Positions 6,052 to 41,867 of a DNA stretch of 64,000 nucleotides are shown piece after piece. The stretch lies in assembly GCF_056746865.1 (NCBI RefSeq), contig NZ_CM163382.1; one strand, written 5' to 3'. The notes beneath the pieces are model-generated. The model was not told where the DNA came from and did no database searches. It saw only the letters and a program-made list of their open reading frames with translations. The position numbers and the translations under genes were made by a program. Position 1 is the first letter of the stretch. Every line of letters starts with the position of its first letter.

Positions 6052-8225
<2,174 letters not shown>

Positions 8226-8385
8226 TTACTCCAGAATGCAGCGCAAGGCGAGGAGTATCCCCGTCTCATCTCTCTGGTTTCAGGGTTACGGTGCGTTGGC
8301 AGGATTTAACGCGTACGTCTTTTCAGAAGGAAATCGACAAAGCGGGAAGTTTGCCTGGAACAGGCGGCGATTGTCAATGATGTGA

Positions 8386-8412
8386 AAAAGGGAACCATCG
8401 GGTTCCCTTTTG
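8386..8412 (-). terminator. Rho-independent terminator hairpin downstream of fabB (bidirectional A/T flanks)
   Basis: GGGAACC-ATCG-GGTTCCC stem-loop flanked by A-run and T-run. Confidence 0.55.
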
Positions 8413-8443
8413 CATTAGTGCCGGAGGCGGTATTGGTGCATAT

Positions 8444-8480
8444 CGTCGGATGCGACGCTGGCGCGTCTTATCCGACCTAC
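8444..8480. repeat. REP-like palindromic element
   Basis: TCGGATGCGACGCTGGCGCGTCTTATCCGACCTAC resembles the REP consensus (GCCGGATGCG...CTTATCCGGCCTAC). Confidence 0.55.
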
Positions 8481-8506
8481 TCCGAGCTACTCCGACCTAC
8501 TGCGAA

Positions 8507-9727
8507 TTAATCTTTCAGCTTACGCATTACCAGCGTGGCGTTGGTGCCGCCGAAGCCGAAGCTGTTAGACATCACGGTGGTCAGTTCGCGATCGGTCGTT
8601 TCGGTCACGATGTTCAGACCCGCAGCCTGTTCGTCCAGCTCTTCAATGTTGATGCTCGGGGCGATAAAGCCGTGTTCCAGCATCAGCAGAGAGTAGATAG
8701 CTTCCTGTACGCCAGCAGCGCCCAGAGAGTGACCGGTCATTGCTTTGGTTGCAGAAATCGCCGGGCTCTTATCGCCGAACACTTCACGGATAGCCGCCAG
8801 CTCTTTCACGTCGCCAACCGGAGTCGAAGTACCGTGGGAGTTCAGGTAGTCGATTGGGGTATCAACACCGTGCATCGCCATCTTCATGCAACGCACTGCG
8901 CCTTCGCCAGACGGAGCAACCATGTCTGCGCCATCAGACGTTGCGCCGTAGCCAACGATTTCAGCGTAGATATGAGCACCACGTGCCAACGCGTGTTCCA
9001 GTTCTTCGACCACCACCATACCGCCGCCGCCAGCGATAACGAAACCGTCACGGTGAGCGTCATAAGTACGGGAGGCTTTTTCCGGGGTGTCGTTGTATTT
9101 GGTAGACAGCGCGCCCATTGCGTCGAATTCGCAGGCCATTTCCCAGCACAGCTCTTCGCCGCCGCCAGCAAACACGATATCCTGTTTGCCCAGTTGGATC
9201 TGCTCTACTGCGTTACCGATACAGTGCGCGGAAGTCGCACATGCGGAGCTGATGGAGTAGTTAACGCCGTGAATCTTAAACGGCGTGGCGAGGCAGGCAG
9301 AAACGCCGGATGCCATCGCTTTGGTGACCACATACGGGCCTACCGCTTTCAGGCCGCGCGGGCCGCGCATTGCGTCAGCGCCGAACACCTGAAAACGCGG
9401 GGAACCGCCGCCGGAACCTGCAATCAGGCCAACGCGCGGGTTATTCTGGTAAGCTTCCGGGGAGAGGCCAGCATCTGCAATTGCCTGCTCCATAGAAAGG
9501 AATGCATAAATGGATGCGTCGCTCATAAAGCGCACAACTTTGCGGTCAATGAGGCCAGTGGTATCCAGTTTTACGTTGCCCCAGACGTGGCTACGCATGC
9601 CGGAATCCTTCAGCTCCTGAGAGAAAGTGATCCCTGAACGTCCTTCACGCAGAGATGCCAGGACTTCCTGCTGGTTATTACCGATGCTGGAAACAATGCC
9701 CAGGCCAGTAATCACTGCACGTTTCAT
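8507..9727 (-). CDS. fabB: 3-oxoacyl-ACP synthase I (KAS I)
   Basis: 406-aa [25 protein letters not shown] with condensing-enzyme active-site region (Cys...His...His). Confidence 0.95.
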
Positions 9728-9819
9728 TCAATACCTCTGTAAGTCGCACATAGAGTAAGTTTCGAATGCACAATAGCGTACACTTGTACGCCGAACAAGT
9801 CCGATCAGCCAATTAATAG

Positions 9820-11892
<2,073 letters not shown>

Positions 11893-32522: not shown

Positions 32523-33770
32523 ATGCTACCATCTATTTCAATCAACAATACCAGCGCAGCTTACACAGAATCCATCAATGAAAATAACAATGATGAAGTT
32601 AATAGATTAGTACAAGAGCTCAAAAACCTTTTTAATGGTAAGCAAGGAATAAGCACCTGTGTTAAACATCTACTTGCGCTTATAAAAAACGCCATACGAG
32701 GAAACGACAATCCTGATAGATTTAATATTAATAATTCCTCAGTTACTTATATTGATATTGGCTCCAATGATACAGACCACATTACTATTGGTATCGATAA
32801 CCAAGAAACAATAAAATTACTTGCGAGCTATAAAGACAAAGAACTCGTCCGTGCTATCATTAATGACAACATAGTTGAGAAGACTCATGATGATATAAAT
32901 AATGCTGACTTTACTGATGGTAGTATCGTTGTTAGTGGTAATAAGGGTGCTATTGACTCCAATGATACAGCCGATATTACTAGTGGTATCTATAATCAAG
33001 AACCAATAAAATCACCTACGAACGATGAAAACAAAAAAGTCGGCCAAACCATCATCCATGAAAATGTAGTAGAGAATACTCATGATATCAATAACAAGGA
33101 AATGATCTTCAGCGCATTAAAAGAAATATATGATGGAGATCCTGGTTTTATCTTCGATAAGATATCACAAAAACTCAGACATACGATAACGGAATTTGAT
33201 GAGAATGGGAAAAGCGAACCAACGGACTTATTTACCTGGTACGGTAAAGATAAAAAAGGCGATTCTCTCGCTATTGTAATTAAAAATAAAAACGGAAATG
33301 ATTACTTATCTCTCGGTTACTATGATCAGGACGACTACCACATTCAAAGAGGAATTCGTATTAATGGTGATAGTCTCACCCAATATTGTAGTGAAAAAGC
33401 CAGGAATGCTTCAGCGTGGTTTGAAAGCAGTAAAGCTATCATGGCAGAATCATTTGCAACAGGTTCCGATCATCAGGTTGTAAACGAGCTCAACGGGGAA
33501 AGACTGAGAGAGCCAAACGAAGTTTTTAAACGTTTAGGTCGAGCAATAAGATATAATTTTCAAGTAGACGATGCAAAATTTAGACGCGATAATGTAAAAG
33601 AAATAATTTCTACTTTAGTCGATAACGAAGTTGACCGTTCTCAAAATAAATATGACCACTTTAAGGAAATCGAAGATAAAGTTGAAAAAAGGCTTCAAAA
33701 TCGCCAGGCTAAATATCAAAATGAAATTAATCAACTATCTGCATTGGGTGTTAATTTTGATGATAATTAA
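32523..33770 (+). CDS. yfdF: Uncharacterized AT-rich protein YfdF-like, with internal ~65-aa tandem duplication
   Basis: 415-aa ORF MLPSISINNTSAAYTESINENNNDE; Asn/Asp/Lys/Ile-rich and low GC; sits between fadL and mlaA as yfdF does in E. coli. Confidence 0.7.
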   Translation: MLPSISINNTSAAYTESINENNNDEVNRLVQELKNLFNGKQGISTCVKHLLALIKNAIRGNDNPDRFNINNSSVTYIDIGSNDTDHITIGIDNQETIKLLASYKDKELVRAIINDNIVEKTHDDINNADFTDGSIVVSGNKGAIDSNDTADITSGIYNQEPIKSPTNDENKKVGQTIIHENVVENTHDINNKEMIFSALKEIYDGDPGFIFDKISQKLRHTITEFDENGKSEPTDLFTWYGKDKKGDSLAIVIKNKNGNDYLSLGYYDQDDYHIQRGIRINGDSLTQYCSEKARNASAWFESSKAIMAESFATGSDHQVVNELNGERLREPNEVFKRLGRAIRYNFQVDDAKFRRDNVKEIISTLVDNEVDRSQNKYDHFKEIEDKVEKRLQNRQAKYQNEINQLSALGVNFDDN

Positions 33771-36005: not shown

Positions 36006-36080
36006 GTCCTCTTAGTTAAATGGATATAACGAGCCCCTCCTAAGGGCTAATTGCAGGTTCGATTCCTGCAGGGGACACCA
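36006..36080 (+). tRNA. argW: tRNA-Arg (anticodon CCU)
   Basis: GTCCTCTTAGTTAAATGGATATAACGAGCCCCTCCTAAGGGCTAATTGCAGGTTCGATTCCTGCAGGGGACACCA: 75 nt, cloverleaf-compatible, CCU anticodon in the loop, 3-prime CCA. Confidence 0.9.
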
Positions 36081-36521
36081 GATACCCTTCTAACAATATC
36101 TACCTTCACCCCGTAAAAGATGGGTTTGGCAGCACACTTGCCCTATATCTACTCATTTTTACTGCAACAGGTTGAAATCTCAGCACTGTCAGAAAGCGCT
36201 GATGACTAAACAGCCCTGGGCCGGGCGATGTAACCATCATACAGAATCCTGATAGCGAAATATGGCGTGACTCGATACTTCACTCTGCAATGCGTTCCTT
36301 GATGAATTCGCAGGCCCGTGATACACGGGACAAGTCGCTGAATGACGACAATGTCCTGGAAATCAGCGAACCGCGTATCCGGAGTACATTTGAGCGACTG
36401 TACCAGAACATGAATGAGGCGTTTGGATTAGGTGATTATTAGTTGGGCTAAGCATTTTTGTATTATTATTTTCCGGTTGAGGGATATGGAGATATCGACA
36501 ACAACCGGAAAAAGTTTACGT

Positions 36522-37769
36522 CTATATTGCTGAAGGTACAGGCGTTTCCATAACTATTTGCTCGCGTTTTTTACTCAGGAAGAAAATGCCAAATAGCAAC
36601 ATCAGGCAGACAATACCCGAAATTGCGAAGAAAACTGTCTGGTAGCCTGCGTGGTCAAAGAGTATCCCAGTCGGCGTTGAAAGCAGCACAATCCCAAGCG
36701 AACTGGCAATTTGAAAACCAATCAGAAAGATCGTCGACGACAGGCGCTTATCAAAGTTTGCCACGCTGTATTTGAAGACGGATATGACACAAAGTGGAAC
36801 CTCAATGGCATGTAACAGCTTCACTAATGAAATAATCCAGGGGTTAACGAACAACGCGCAGGAAAGGATACGCAACGCCATAATCACAACACCGATAAGT
36901 AATGCATTTTTTGGCCCTACCCGATTCACAAAGAAAGGAATAATCGCCATGCACAGCGCTTCGAGTACCACCTGGAATGAGTTGAGATAACCATACAGGC
37001 GCGTTCCTACATCGTGTGATTCGAATAAACCTGCATAAAAGACAGGAAAGAGTTGTTGATCAAAAATGTTATAGAAAGACCACGTCCCCACAATAAATAT
37101 GACAAAAACCCAGAAGTTTCGATCCTTGAAAACTGCGATAAAATCCTCTTTTTTTACCCCTCCCGCATCCGCCGCTACACACTGGTGACCCTTATCTTTA
37201 AAACGCATGTTGATCATCATAAATACAGCGCCAAATAGCGAGACCAGCCAGAAGTTGATATGGGGACTGATACTAAAAAATATGCCGGCAAAGAACGCGC
37301 CAATAGCATAGCCAAAAGATCCCCAGGCGCGCGCTGTTCCATATTCGAAATGAAAATTTCGCGCCATTTTTTCAGTGAAGCTGTCAAGCAAACCACATCC
37401 CGCCAGATACCCCAGGCCAAAAAAGAGCGCCCCCAGAATTAGACCTACAGAAAAATTGCTTTGCAGTAACGGTTCATAAACGTAAATCATAAACGGTCCG
37501 GTCAAGACCAGAATGAAACTCATACACCAGATGAGCGGTTTCTTCAGACCGAGTTTATCCTGAACGATGCCGTAGAACATCATAAATAGAATGCTGGTAA
37601 ACTGGTTGACCGAATAAAGTGTACCTAATTCCGTCCCTGTTAATCCTAGATGTCCTTTCAGCCAAATAGCGTATAACGACCACCACAGCGACCAGGAAAT
37701 AAAAAAGAGAAATGAGTAACTGGATGCAAAACGATAGTACGCATTTCTGAATGGAATATTCAGTGCCAT
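36522..37769 (-). CDS. cscB: Sucrose:H+ symporter (oligosaccharide:H+ symporter family, MFS) CscB
   Basis: 415-aa 12-TM ORF MALNIPFRNAYYRFASSYSFLFFISWSLWWSLYAIWLKGHLGL, LacY-like sucrose permease. Confidence 0.88.
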   Translation of the reverse strand: MALNIPFRNAYYRFASSYSFLFFISWSLWWSLYAIWLKGHLGLTGTELGTLYSVNQFTSILFMMFYGIVQDKLGLKKPLIWCMSFILVLTGPFMIYVYEPLLQSNFSVGLILGALFFGLGYLAGCGLLDSFTEKMARNFHFEYGTARAWGSFGYAIGAFFAGIFFSISPHINFWLVSLFGAVFMMINMRFKDKGHQCVAADAGGVKKEDFIAVFKDRNFWVFVIFIVGTWSFYNIFDQQLFPVFYAGLFESHDVGTRLYGYLNSFQVVLEALCMAIIPFFVNRVGPKNALLIGVVIMALRILSCALFVNPWIISLVKLLHAIEVPLCVISVFKYSVANFDKRLSSTIFLIGFQIASSLGIVLLSTPTGILFDHAGYQTVFFAISGIVCLMLLFGIFFLSKKREQIVMETPVPSAI

Positions 37770-37830
37770 AATTACCTGCCCGTCGTTAAAAAATTCATGT
37801 CCTATTTAGAGATAAGAGCGGCCTCGCCGT

Positions 37831-38754
37831 TTACTTCTCACTTTCCAGTTCTTGTCGACATGGCAGCGCTGTCATTGCCCCTTTCGCTGTTACTGCAAGC
37901 GCTCCGCAACGTTGAGCGAGATCGATAATTCGTCGCATTTCTCTCTCATCTGTAGATAATCCCGAAGAGGACAGACCTGTGAGTAACCCGGCAACGAACG
38001 CATCTCCCGCCCCAGTGCTATCGACACAATTCACAGACATTCCAGCAAAATGGTGGACTTGTCCTCGATAACAGACCACCACCCCTTCTGCACCTTTAGT
38101 CACCAACAGCATGGCGATCTCATAATCTTTTGCCAGGGCGCATATATCCCGATCGTTCTGTGTTTTTCCACTGATAAGTCGCCATTCTTCTTCCGAGAGC
38201 TTGACGACATCCGCCAGTTGTAGCGCCTGCCGCAAACACAAGCGGAGCAAATGCTCGTCTTGCCATAGATCTTCACGAATATTGGGATCGAAGCTGACAA
38301 AACCTCCGGCATGCCGGATCGCCGTCATCGCAGTAAATGCGCTGGTACGCGAAGGCTCGGCAGACAACGCAATTGAACAGAGATGTAACCATTCGCCATG
38401 TCGCCAGCAGGGCAAGTCTGTCGTCTCTAAAAAAAGATCGGCACTGGGGCGGACCATAAACGTAAATGAACGTTCTCCTTGATCGTTCAGATCGACAAGC
38501 ACCGTGGATGTCCGGTGCCATTCATCTTGCTTCAGATACGTGATATCGACACCCTCAGTTAGCAGCGTTCTTTGCATTAACGCACCAAAAGGATCATCAC
38601 CGACCCGACCTATAAACCCACTTGTTCCGCCTAATCTGGCGATTCCCACCGCAACGTTAGCTGGCGCGCCGCCAGGACAAGGCAGTAGCCGCCCGTCTGA
38701 TTCTGGCAAGAGATCTACGACCGCATCCCCTAAAACCCATACTTTGGCTGACAT
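37831..38754 (-). CDS. cscK: Fructokinase CscK (ribokinase/pfkB family)
   Basis: 307-aa ORF MSAKVWVLGDAVVDLLPE with pfkB signature (DSTGAGDAFVAGLL). Confidence 0.9.
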   Translation of the reverse strand: MSAKVWVLGDAVVDLLPESDGRLLPCPGGAPANVAVGIARLGGTSGFIGRVGDDPFGALMQRTLLTEGVDITYLKQDEWHRTSTVLVDLNDQGERSFTFMVRPSADLFLETTDLPCWRHGEWLHLCSIALSAEPSRTSAFTAMTAIRHAGGFVSFDPNIREDLWQDEHLLRLCLRQALQLADVVKLSEEEWRLISGKTQNDRDICALAKDYEIAMLLVTKGAEGVVVCYRGQVHHFAGMSVNCVDSTGAGDAFVAGLLTGLSSSGLSTDEREMRRIIDLAQRCGALAVTAKGAMTALPCRQELESEK

Positions 38755-38858
38755 TTTTTTCCCTTAAATTCATCTGACTTACGCATAGTGATAAACCTCT
38801 TTTTCGCAAAATCGTCATGGATTTACTAAAACATGCATATTCGATCACAAAACATCAT

Positions 38859-38936
38859 AGTTAACGTTAACATTTGTGATATTCATCGCATTTATGAAAG
38901 TAAGTGACTTTATTTTTATAAAAGTTAACGTTAACA
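38859..38936. promoter_or_regulatory. Divergent cscK/cscA promoter region with two identical palindromic 14-mers (candidate CscR operators)
   Basis: AGTTAACGTTAACA occurs at 38859-38872 and 38923-38936; each is itself palindromic (GTTAAC x2); LacI-family repressors bind such dyads. Confidence 0.5.
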
Positions 38937-38960
38937 ATTCACCAAATTTGCTTAACCAGG

Positions 38961-40403
38961 ATGATTAAAATGACGCAATCTCGATTGCATGCGGCGCAAA
39001 ACGCACTAGCAAAACTTCACGAGCGCCGAGGTAACACTTTCTATCCCCATTTTCACCTCGCGCCTCCTGCCGGGTGGATGAACGATCCAAACGGCCTGAT
39101 CTGGTTTAACGATCGTTATCACGCGTTTTATCAACATCACCCGATGAGCGAACACTGGGGGCCAATGCACTGGGGACATGCCACCAGCGACGATATGATC
39201 CACTGGCAGCATGAGCCTATTGCGCTAGCGCCAGGAGACGAGAATGACAAAGACGGATGTTTTTCAGGTAGTGCTGTCGATGACAATGGTGTCCTCTCAC
39301 TTATCTACACCGGACACGTCTGGCTCGATAGTGAAGGTAATGACGATGCAATTCGCGAAGTACAATGTCTGGCTACCAGTCGGGATGGTATTCATTTCGA
39401 GAAACAGGGTGTGATCCTCACTCCACCAGAAGGAATCATGCACTTCCGCGATCCTAAAGTGTGGCGTGAAGCCGACACATGGTGGATGGTAGTCGGGGCG
39501 AAAGACCCAGGCAACACGGGGCAGATCCTGCTTTATCGCGGCAGTTCATTGCGTGAATGGACTTTCGATCGCGTACTGGCCCACGCTGATGCGGGTGAAA
39601 GCTATATGTGGGAATGTCCGGACTTTTTCAGCCTTGGCGATCAGCATTATCTGATGTTTTCCCCGCAGGGAATGAATGCCGAGGGATACAGTTATCGAAA
39701 TCGCTTTCAAAGTGGCGTAATACCCGGAATGTGGTCGCCAGGACGACTTTTTGCACAATCCGGGCATTTTACTGAACTTGATAACGGGCATGACTTTTAT
39801 GCACCACAAAGCTTTGTAGCGAAGGATGGTCGGCGTATTGTTATCGGCTGGATGGATATGTGGGAATCGCCAATGCCCTCAAAACGTGAAGGCTGGGCAG
39901 GCTGCATGACGCTGGCGCGCGAGCTATCAGAGAGCAATGGCAAACTCCTACAACGCCCGGTACACGAAGCTGAGTCGTTACGCCAGCAGCATCAATCTAT
40001 CTCTCCCCGCACAATCAGCAATAAATATGTTTTGCAGGAAAACGCGCAAGCAGTTGAGATTCAGTTGCAGTGGGAGCTGAAGAACAGTGATGCCGAACAT
40101 TACGGATTACAACTCGGCACAGGAATGCGGCTGTATATTGATAACCAATCTGAGCGACTTGTTTTGTGGCGATATTACCCACACGAGAATTTAGACGGCT
40201 ACCGTAGTATTCCCCTCCCGCAGGGTGACACGCTCGCCCTAAGGATATTTATCGATACATCATCCGTGGAAGTATTTATTAACGACGGGGAAACGGTGAT
40301 GAGTAGCCGAATCTATCCGCAGCCAGAAGAACGGGAACTGTCGCTCTATGCCTCCCACGGAGTGGCTGTGCTGCAACATGGAGCACTCTGGCAACTGGGT
40401 TAA
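38961..40403 (+). CDS. cscA: Sucrose-6-phosphate hydrolase / invertase CscA (GH32)
   Basis: 480-aa ORF with GH32 motifs (WMNDPNG, RDP, EC); alternative start at ATG 38970 (MTQSRLHAA) gives 477 aa. Confidence 0.9.
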   Translation: MIKMTQSRLHAAQNALAKLHERRGNTFYPHFHLAPPAGWMNDPNGLIWFNDRYHAFYQHHPMSEHWGPMHWGHATSDDMIHWQHEPIALAPGDENDKDGCFSGSAVDDNGVLSLIYTGHVWLDSEGNDDAIREVQCLATSRDGIHFEKQGVILTPPEGIMHFRDPKVWREADTWWMVVGAKDPGNTGQILLYRGSSLREWTFDRVLAHADAGESYMWECPDFFSLGDQHYLMFSPQGMNAEGYSYRNRFQSGVIPGMWSPGRLFAQSGHFTELDNGHDFYAPQSFVAKDGRRIVIGWMDMWESPMPSKREGWAGCMTLARELSESNGKLLQRPVHEAESLRQQHQSISPRTISNKYVLQENAQAVEIQLQWELKNSDAEHYGLQLGTGMRLYIDNQSERLVLWRYYPHENLDGYRSIPLPQGDTLALRIFIDTSSVEVFINDGETVMSSRIYPQPEERELSLYASHGVAVLQHGALWQLG

Positions 40404-40410
40404 CATAATA

Positions 40411-41406
40411 TCAGGTGGAACAACGGATCAACAGCGGGCAAGGGATCCGCGTCACTCTTCCCCCTTCACGACCTTCAATAATATGCAATGCAGCTTCCCG
40501 CCCGATAATGTCATGTGGAAGCTGAATTGTGGTCAGCGGCGGTAAAAACAGATGCCCGACGCCAACCAGATTATCAAAGCCCATTACGGCGACATCCTGC
40601 GGGATACGTACCCCCTTCGCCAGGAGAACCTGATAAGCGACAAAGGCTGCGCGATCGTTACCACATATCAGAACATCAAAATCTGGTTTGCCAGATTTGA
40701 AGTGGTCATTGAGTAAACTTGCGAGATCGGTGTAGTGATCATCACCTGTTGCCATGTGAAATTGTTTCACCTCAGCCAGATCTCGTCCAGCATCACGCCA
40801 GGCCTGCTCAAATCCCTGCCGACGATACCCTGTTGCCAACGCACTTTCCGGTAGCCAGAAGCATAACGGTTGACGATAGCCCGCCGCGAGCAAATGCTGT
40901 GTTGATTCATATTGTGCAGTGTAATCATCAGGGATATAACTGGGTAACGCTGGGTCATCCGCAACACAGTTCGCCAATACAATATTTTCACCATACAGAG
41001 ACTCAGGCAGCGTGATATGTCGCAGCCCCATTGTAGTATAGATAATGCCATCCGGACGGTGGGCAAGCAGCTGACGTGCCGCGCGGGCAGCGTCATCTTC
41101 AGAAAAAATATTGATTAAAAAACTATTCCAGCCGAACTCGCTGGCGGTTTGCTCAATGGCAAGCAGAATATCAACAGAGAAAGGAGTGGTAGCCGTGTCC
41201 TGCGCCAGCACGGCGAGAGTCGACGGCTTACGTCCTTGAGCGCGCATCTTACGGGCGGAAAGATCAGGAACATAATTCAGGGTCTGGATTGCCTGCAATA
41301 CGCGGTTACGCGTTGCAGGACGCACAGATTCTGCATTATGCATCACCCGGGAGACTGTCATCATCGACACTCCCGCCAGGCGTGCGACATCCTTTAATGA
41401 AGCCAT
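40411..41406 (-). CDS. cscR: LacI-family sucrose operon repressor CscR
   Basis: ORF 40411..41604 contains MASLKDVARLAGVSMMTVSRVMHN (LacI HTH); start trimmed to ATG 41406 (331 aa). Confidence 0.88.
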   Translation of the reverse strand: MASLKDVARLAGVSMMTVSRVMHNAESVRPATRNRVLQAIQTLNYVPDLSARKMRAQGRKPSTLAVLAQDTATTPFSVDILLAIEQTASEFGWNSFLINIFSEDDAARAARQLLAHRPDGIIYTTMGLRHITLPESLYGENIVLANCVADDPALPSYIPDDYTAQYESTQHLLAAGYRQPLCFWLPESALATGYRRQGFEQAWRDAGRDLAEVKQFHMATGDDHYTDLASLLNDHFKSGKPDFDVLICGNDRAAFVAYQVLLAKGVRIPQDVAVMGFDNLVGVGHLFLPPLTTIQLPHDIIGREAALHIIEGREGGRVTRIPCPLLIRCST

Positions 41407-41636
41407 ACCCAAGCCGTTTGCCGTAAAACGGGCACTGTAGCAGAAACAGACGTCACTGGCGAGATCCAACGATATTCTCGACGCCCTATCACCCGACACG
41501 GCAATACAATAAAAAATAACAATAATTCCCGGACAATTGTACCCAATTCCGCCTCTGTTCTCGCCAACGAGTAACCATGTAGGCAAGTAGGTAAAACATG
41601 CCAACTGGCATCGCCAATCTGGAGAAGAAAATATAA

Positions 41637-41867
41637 ATATGGATCATTGTGCTGGCGCTGTATCCCGACATCAGCCCGGAAATTTTTACGATTGATATCG
41701 GTTCAAGTGCAATTGGCTGCACGATCGTTACGGACTCGCTTTTCTGGCTGGTGAAGCAATATTGCGGCGCTACGCTCAATGAAACATTTAAATACTATAC
41801 GACAGCGACATTTATCGCTTCAGTCGTCGCTCTGGCGGGCACATTCCTGCTGTCATTTATCATCTAA
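41637..41867 (+). pseudogene. dsdX: 3-prime remnant of D-serine permease gene dsdX (GntP family), truncated by the csc insertion
   Basis: Frame open from 41637 with no upstream coding continuation; hydrophobic C-terminal sequence ...[49 protein letters not shown]... matches my recollection of the DsdX C-terminus; directly upstream of dsdA. Confidence 0.65.

Follow-up and report, generated by a model that had tools for sequence, protein, structure and literature searches.

The argW-dsdCXA / csc region of Escherichia coli is described, in two papers (PMC11251922, PMC4366372; citing Jahreis et al. 2002, Moritz & Welch 2006), as a recombination hot spot at which csc and dsdCX are mutually exclusive. 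These papers contain no description of what the argW-cscB spacer holds. The stretch of 64,000 nucleotides analysed here, termed the window (contig NZ_CM163382.1 of RefSeq assembly GCF_056746865.1), shares this locus and displays the order argW - cscB K A R - truncated dsdX - dsdA. In the survey set of 5426 complete E. coli genomes, csc-type flanks were found in 2644 and dsd-type flanks in 2710.

The CP4-type islands of E. coli (the CP4-57 / CP4-44 / CP4-6-like “yee/yfj” module) display a conserved end module, in which the genes follow the order DUF932, antirestriction, RadC, DUF987, YeeU/CbtA, DUF5983, DUF957 and DUF4942. In each of the four intact loci examined (L005, L007, L019 and L020), the DUF4942 gene is the last of the module and lies directly at the island boundary. 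In the islands inserted at serW (L005) and ileX (L007) this gene converges on the tRNA, and in the two islands at pheV (L019 and L020) it occupies the far end and reads outward. The DUF4942 domain receives little mention in the literature, displays weak similarity to part of a phage DNA-methyltransferase family, and a search by sequence returned no solved structure for it.

The attR side of the K-12 prophage CPS-53/KplE1 comprises torI, the pawZ core, a flank and dsdC, where pawZ is the attR copy of the 15-nt argW core. The same core marks the boundary in the window, which differs in containing no prophage and one core only, and the DNA that follows this core is unrelated to either K-12 flank. 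The RefSeq label “DUF4942 domain-containing protein”, attached in many genomes to the open reading frame (ORF) downstream of argW, and the argW hot spot itself were already documented; added here are the pseudogene status of that frame, the exact anatomy of the segment and the borders of the csc block. The segment is an ordinary gene remnant, a molecular fossil at a known hot spot.

Organization of the argW-cscB gap

The tRNA gene argW, with yfdC directly upstream and cscB downstream, ends at position 36080 and cscB is located from position 36522; the gap between them thus extends exactly from 36081 to 36521 (441 bp). It contains no intact gene, the longest ORF inside it encoding 50 residues, and the first-pass annotation was correct in describing a segment of ~440 bp that lacks a full gene and includes a short ORF. 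The gap comprises three parts, namely a 66-bp spacer (36081-36146), a DUF4942 pseudogene fragment on the plus strand (36147-36433) and the end of the csc block (~36445-36521). The features referred to below, in window coordinates, are the following.

36006-36080, plus strand: argW, tRNA-Arg(CCU), identified by ARAGORN and Rfam
36066-36080, plus strand: last 15 nt of argW, CTGCAGGGGACACCA, the att core of argW-integrating prophages, at which the K-12 CPS-53 annotation begins
36081-36146, no strand assigned: 66-bp spacer that begins right behind the CCA of the tRNA; its only homologues are the corresponding stretches in other csc+ lineages
36147-36234, plus strand: block A of the DUF4942 pseudogene, the counterpart of nt 112-199 of the intact gene, which is 846 nt long (74% in an 88-nt blastn alignment with L007:8890-9735)
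36224-36433, plus strand: block B of the DUF4942 pseudogene, corresponding to nt 243-453 of the intact gene, approximately residues 82-151 (blastn, 75% over 203 nt)
36290-36442, plus strand: residual 50-aa ORF with an ATG start (ORF list), in a frame open from 36206
36445-36521, minus strand: left end of the csc block, 3' of the cscB stop, with a hairpin (from Citrobacter, ETEC L7 and the alignment)
36522-37769, minus strand: cscB, sucrose permease of 415 aa, first gene of the csc block (ORF list)
41650-41867, plus strand: 3' remnant of dsdX, from nt 1121 of K-12 dsdX, the right-hand replacement junction (homology to K-12 dsdX)

The 3' end of argW quoted in the first-pass annotation, GGTTCGATTCCTGCAGGGGACACCA, corresponds to positions 36056-36080. 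When up to 3 mismatches are allowed for this 25-nt end, and up to 2 for the 15-nt core, each occurs once in the 64 kb, and a generic direct-repeat search over 35.9-43.4 kb returned no relevant repeat. The proposal that att-like repeats of the tRNA end, or an att scar, might be found here is therefore not borne out, as neither a second argW end nor a second core is present, and the attL/attR pair of a CP4-type island is equally missing over these two ranges.

The csc+ and csc-negative haplotypes part exactly at the tRNA CCA end. The K-12-type flank, consisting of the att core and ~95 bp followed by dsdC, occurs in 2710 genomes, often right after argW. The 66-bp spacer of the window was compared with the two K-12 flanks (attL and attR), the ETEC locus bearing an IntS fragment, the stretches that separate DUF4942 from the tRNA in two islands, and the 5' portion of DUF4942 that the remnant lacks, and it resembles none of them significantly. 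It is similar to the corresponding flank of L009, a divergent Escherichia whose csc genes are ~90% identical (the local alignment score was reached by 0.45% of 2000 shuffles). In L009, the remnant, from which ~180 further bp are deleted, is preceded by a 16-nt attR match, made up of the 15-nt core and one more base, and before this by torI, which is 100% identical to the torI of K-12 CPS-53.

Prophages may be located on both sides of argW, as observed in O157:H7 TR01 (L026, 2441-2677) and in 118UI (L001, 5567-7000). One integrase gene lies immediately upstream of argW in these prophage-flanked loci, and in TR01 intS lies immediately downstream. The 41 nt that follow argW in TR01 are identical to the K-12 attR-side flank beside dsdC, and the K-12 dsdC-side flank may thus itself be phage-arm DNA.

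The segment is present in 2644 of the 5426 genomes and cscB in 2648. A junction query spanning 36300-36700 was covered to at least 80% in 2621 genomes and the full segment in 2623, so that at least 2621 of the 2644 carriers have the remnant in physical continuity with cscB. The remnant is inherited together with csc. Conservation of the segment in strains that lack csc, which the first-pass annotation had named as evidence against its own proposal, was not observed, given this linkage and the separate K-12-type flank of the csc-negative genomes.

The DUF4942 segment downstream of argW

The core of the gap is a dead DUF4942 gene fragment, non-functional relic DNA, with a probability that we place at about 0.9. 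The open frame 36206-36439 matches the Pfam DUF4942 profile (PF13708) with an E-value of 3.3e-10 and a score of 40.4 bits, where the cut-off is 25. Of the 190 profile positions only 5-62 are matched (58/190, ~30% of the domain), while in the intact 280-aa protein profile positions 1-190 are found at residues 87-276. The remnant thus passes the PF13708 gathering score but does not present the complete domain in an intact frame (profile 1-190, ~280 aa). When the intact 280-aa protein was used as a tblastn query, its residues 76-151 aligned to 36206-36433 with 50% identity (E = 5e-18), and residues 38-70 aligned more weakly to 36147-36245, in another frame than block B.

The reference for the DNA comparison was the 846-nt DUF4942 copy of L007, which is otherwise full length and is designated a pseudogene by PGAP owing to one internal stop. 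In distant mode, the DNA match to this gene spans 36147-36425 of the window, and blocks A and B are collinear with it, the block B alignment pairing 36224-36425 with gene nt 243-445 at 75% identity. The 11 nt at 36224-36234, GGCGATGTAAC, align both to nt 189-199 and to nt 243-253 of the intact gene, where their counterparts are two similar motifs, GGCGATGAAAC and GGCAATGAAAG. The offset between the blocks shifts by 55 nt, so that this is a slippage-type, frameshifting deletion at a short direct repeat. Block A also contains an in-frame TAA at 36207-36209, where the intact gene has AAA. In total, the remnant corresponds to nt 112-453 of ~846, with 111 nt missing at the 5' end of the gene and ~390 nt at the 3' end. 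With both ends cut, an internal deletion and a nonsense codon, it is therefore a pseudogene fragment.

The remnant is homologous to the DUF4942 genes of CP4-type islands at both the protein and the DNA level, and it differs from them in extent (nt 112-453 only) and in carrying a frameshift and a nonsense codon. It is also far more divergent. The remnant is ~50% identical to the intact protein in amino acid sequence, whereas the intact paralogues differ from one another at 15-23 of the same 228 nt (6.6-10%), mostly at third positions. Sorted by codon position, the differences between the remnant and the intact genes are distributed 21:22:30, as against 1-2 : 1-3 : 12-20 among the intact paralogues; the even spread is the signature of long unconstrained drift. 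An exhaustive HMMER search retrieved no close full-length relative of the fragment above ~52% identity, and a word-indexed protein search with the fragment returned only the same short ORF from the argW-csc locus. No 3' half of a DUF4942 gene was detected beyond csc by tblastn of the whole window.

In seven csc+ lineages the segment differs by 0.04-0.07 per site, the closest pairs excepted, and in the same lineages cscB presents synonymous divergences of 0.03-0.09 and non-synonymous divergences of 0.001-0.005. The segment thus evolves at approximately the synonymous rate of cscB, far exceeding the non-synonymous rate.

Two database proteins, P0016 and P0022, display an unrelated N-terminus fused to the remnant reading frame, P0016 with a precomputed PF02508 domain. 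Such fusions probably stem from chimeric assembly or from rearrangement of the locus.

Borders of the csc block and candidate functions in the gap

Loci carrying csc outside E. coli were located by one CscB scan of species-representative genomes. The csc loci of Citrobacter amalonaticus display 80-83% DNA identity to the window, and homology is confined to window positions 36454-41447. These loci (L010 and L014; ~6320-11319) are bordered by sugar ABC-transporter genes on one side and by a chemoreceptor gene, fbp and a Mur-ligase-family gene on the other, and their edges contain neither mobility genes nor DUF4942. In one ETEC genome (L7), 36445-36521 is the only part of the gap retained beside cscB. 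At this locus (L002, 4794-7077; ETEC L7_E1373), an IntS Arm-domain fragment and the tnpA-tnpB genes of ISEc46 (IS200/IS605) replace the remnant, and the last 77 bp before cscB are kept. A hairpin with an 11-bp stem, whose arms extend over 36469-36479 and 36502-36512, is conserved in all csc loci compared, and no similarity persists to the left of it. The Citrobacter start at 36454, the stretch retained in ETEC and the alignment of all csc loci therefore assign ~36445-36521 to the csc block; positions 36081-36444 are not shared with csc loci in other contexts and do not belong to it.

The csc block accordingly extends from ~36445 to 41516, with its left border at ~36445-36454 and its right border at 41447-41516, and these are the limits of the transferable csc unit. 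On the right, 133 bp (41517-41649) separate the end of the block (41447 in Citrobacter; 41516 in Escherichia sp. MOD1-EC7003) from the start of dsdX homology at 41650. This stretch matches nothing outside csc+ E. coli and mirrors the 66 bp at the left border. In Escherichia sp. MOD1-EC7003 (L008, 159-1145), another gene adjoins the cscR side at the place where the dsdX remnant and dsdA would stand, and this replacement implies that the species has either undergone a larger deletion or has its genes arranged differently. By eye, we take this gene to be a lipid A acyltransferase (lpxP-like).

The hairpin has a fold energy of -18.4 kcal/mol (z = -4.1). No U-tract or T-run follows it on either strand, and the terminator scan gave no call at this site. 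Its stability and its conservation across species are what speak for a functional non-coding element in the segment, such as a cscB 3' UTR, a terminator or a small RNA. Such a role is unlikely, as conservation with Citrobacter csc is limited to the last ~77 bp, the hairpin does not qualify as an intrinsic terminator, and Rfam reports the tRNA and nothing else. Moreover, 36081-36444 drifts neutrally and is deleted in some lineages.

Less probable still, to the point of being hardly credible, is a functional small protein encoded by the residual ORF of 50-60 aa. Many RefSeq genomes list this ORF as a coding sequence and its frame remains open for 78 codons in the window, but it spans just 30% of the DUF4942 domain. 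Codon 31 (CGG, 36380-36382) is TGA in two of the seven csc+ lineages compared, and the exact 47-mer with this TGA occurs in 1492 genomes, 56% of the ~2644 carriers. The pN/pS ratio of the ORF is ~1 against the most distant lineage, with an overall rate close to the synonymous one; together with the frequent TGA, this ratio gives no indication of purifying selection on the ORF as a small protein gene. The gene models proposed for it are unstable, with lengths of 44, 50, 54, 60, 73 and 79 aa, one of them from an ATA start. Most of the ORF is gone in L009, an insertion sequence stands in its place in ETEC L7, and the segment scan found no promoter-like site. The peptide singled out in the first-pass annotation (MNSQARDTRDK...GLGDY), said to have no obvious function, begins at 36302 and is the tail of the 36290-36442 ORF. 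This 50-aa ORF is not a gene, rather a still-open stretch of the DUF4942 pseudogene, and the remnant drifts neutrally. The coding sequences designated “DUF4942 domain-containing protein” or “hypothetical protein” by PGAP in many E. coli genomes are therefore a pseudogene fragment and should be flagged as such.

The 60-aa PGAP model “DUF4942 domain-containing protein” (window 36260-36442; found in L001 and L021) begins at an ATA codon. Near-identical DNA in other genomes carries a 50-aa model, a 73-aa model or no PGAP model.

Origin of the fragment at argW

Both the window remnant and the intact DUF4942 copies adjoin a tRNA integration site. The remnant lies on the plus strand and points away from argW, which is the arrangement of the pheV islands (tRNA - integrase ... 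DUF4942 - attR), while in two of the four intact islands examined DUF4942 is directed toward the tRNA, opposite to the orientation in the window. On balance, the fragment is probably, though far from firmly, the relic of an island that sat at argW. A CP4-type island would once have been inserted at the att site of argW, with the order tRNA - integrase ... DUF4942 - attR. Deletions would then have taken everything from the tRNA-proximal arm of the island, of which 36081-36146 is possibly a part, to the middle of DUF4942 (nt 111). The remainder of DUF4942 would have been lost when csc (~36445-41516) was installed, together with attR, dsdC and nt 1-1120 of dsdX. Unlike DUF4942 in the intact islands, the remnant has no other island gene, no integrase and no att repeat beside it: when the whole window was searched by tblastn with two argW integrases, K-12 IntS and that of the 118UI argW prophage, no match for a tyrosine integrase was returned, and only 66 bp and the tRNA precede the remnant at the place where the end module would lie 5' of DUF4942. 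As no integrase, other module gene or second att core is found in the window, the island step rests on the fragment, its orientation and the haplotype break. The exact coincidence of that break with the CCA end of the tRNA suggests that the left junction arose by site-specific recombination and not by an illegitimate event. With respect to the history of the locus, the fragment provides modest evidence for a CP4-type island at argW in the ancestor of csc+ Escherichia.

The first-pass annotation had proposed a remnant of an integrase or phage gene, or a recombination scar. The part of this proposal that holds is the descent from a mobile element, DUF4942 being the terminal gene of CP4-type islands; the integrase or phage gene does not hold. 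That argW is an active integration site, with prophages in K-12, 118UI, O157:H7 and L009, and that one ETEC strain carries an IntS Arm-domain fragment at the equivalent position would agree with a remnant of an integrase or phage gene bordered by an att scar. Such an origin is nevertheless extremely improbable, since neither of the two argW-specific integrases matches the segment or the rest of the window by tblastn, PHROG and PADLOC gave no match for the fragment, and the window contains no second att core. The ETEC integrase fragment, moreover, replaces the remnant and is not part of it. A more serious alternative, possible but with the odds against it, is that the fragment arrived with csc from a donor in which csc adjoined the end of a CP4-type island, 36081/36147-41649 having been inserted as a unit when dsdC and the 5' part of dsdX were replaced in a single illegitimate event. 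DNA restricted to csc+ strains is found at the right border too (41517-41649), and the same arrangement occurs in a divergent Escherichia lineage. The near-perfect linkage of the fragment and cscB in E. coli (2644 against 2648 genomes, 2621 joined) fits co-transfer and a relic left in place equally. Mildly against co-transfer, the csc block of C. amalonaticus stops at window position 36454, between housekeeping genes and with no DUF4942 beside it, and the haplotypes break exactly at the tRNA CCA end, which is also the att core. Among the island histories, it is doubtful that the remnant is the sole surviving trace of a CP4-type island that brought csc to Escherichia as its cargo. Were it so, the sucrose-versus-D-serine polymorphism of E. 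coli would go back to an island that was inserted at a tRNA target and subsequently lost all its mobility genes.

A 415-aa ORF with no Pfam match is located between fadL and mlaA (window 32523-33770, plus strand). Elsewhere this position is occupied by yfdF (L003), by a related “hypothetical protein” (L002) or by nothing (L004), and the fadL-mlaA interval looks like another small variable locus.
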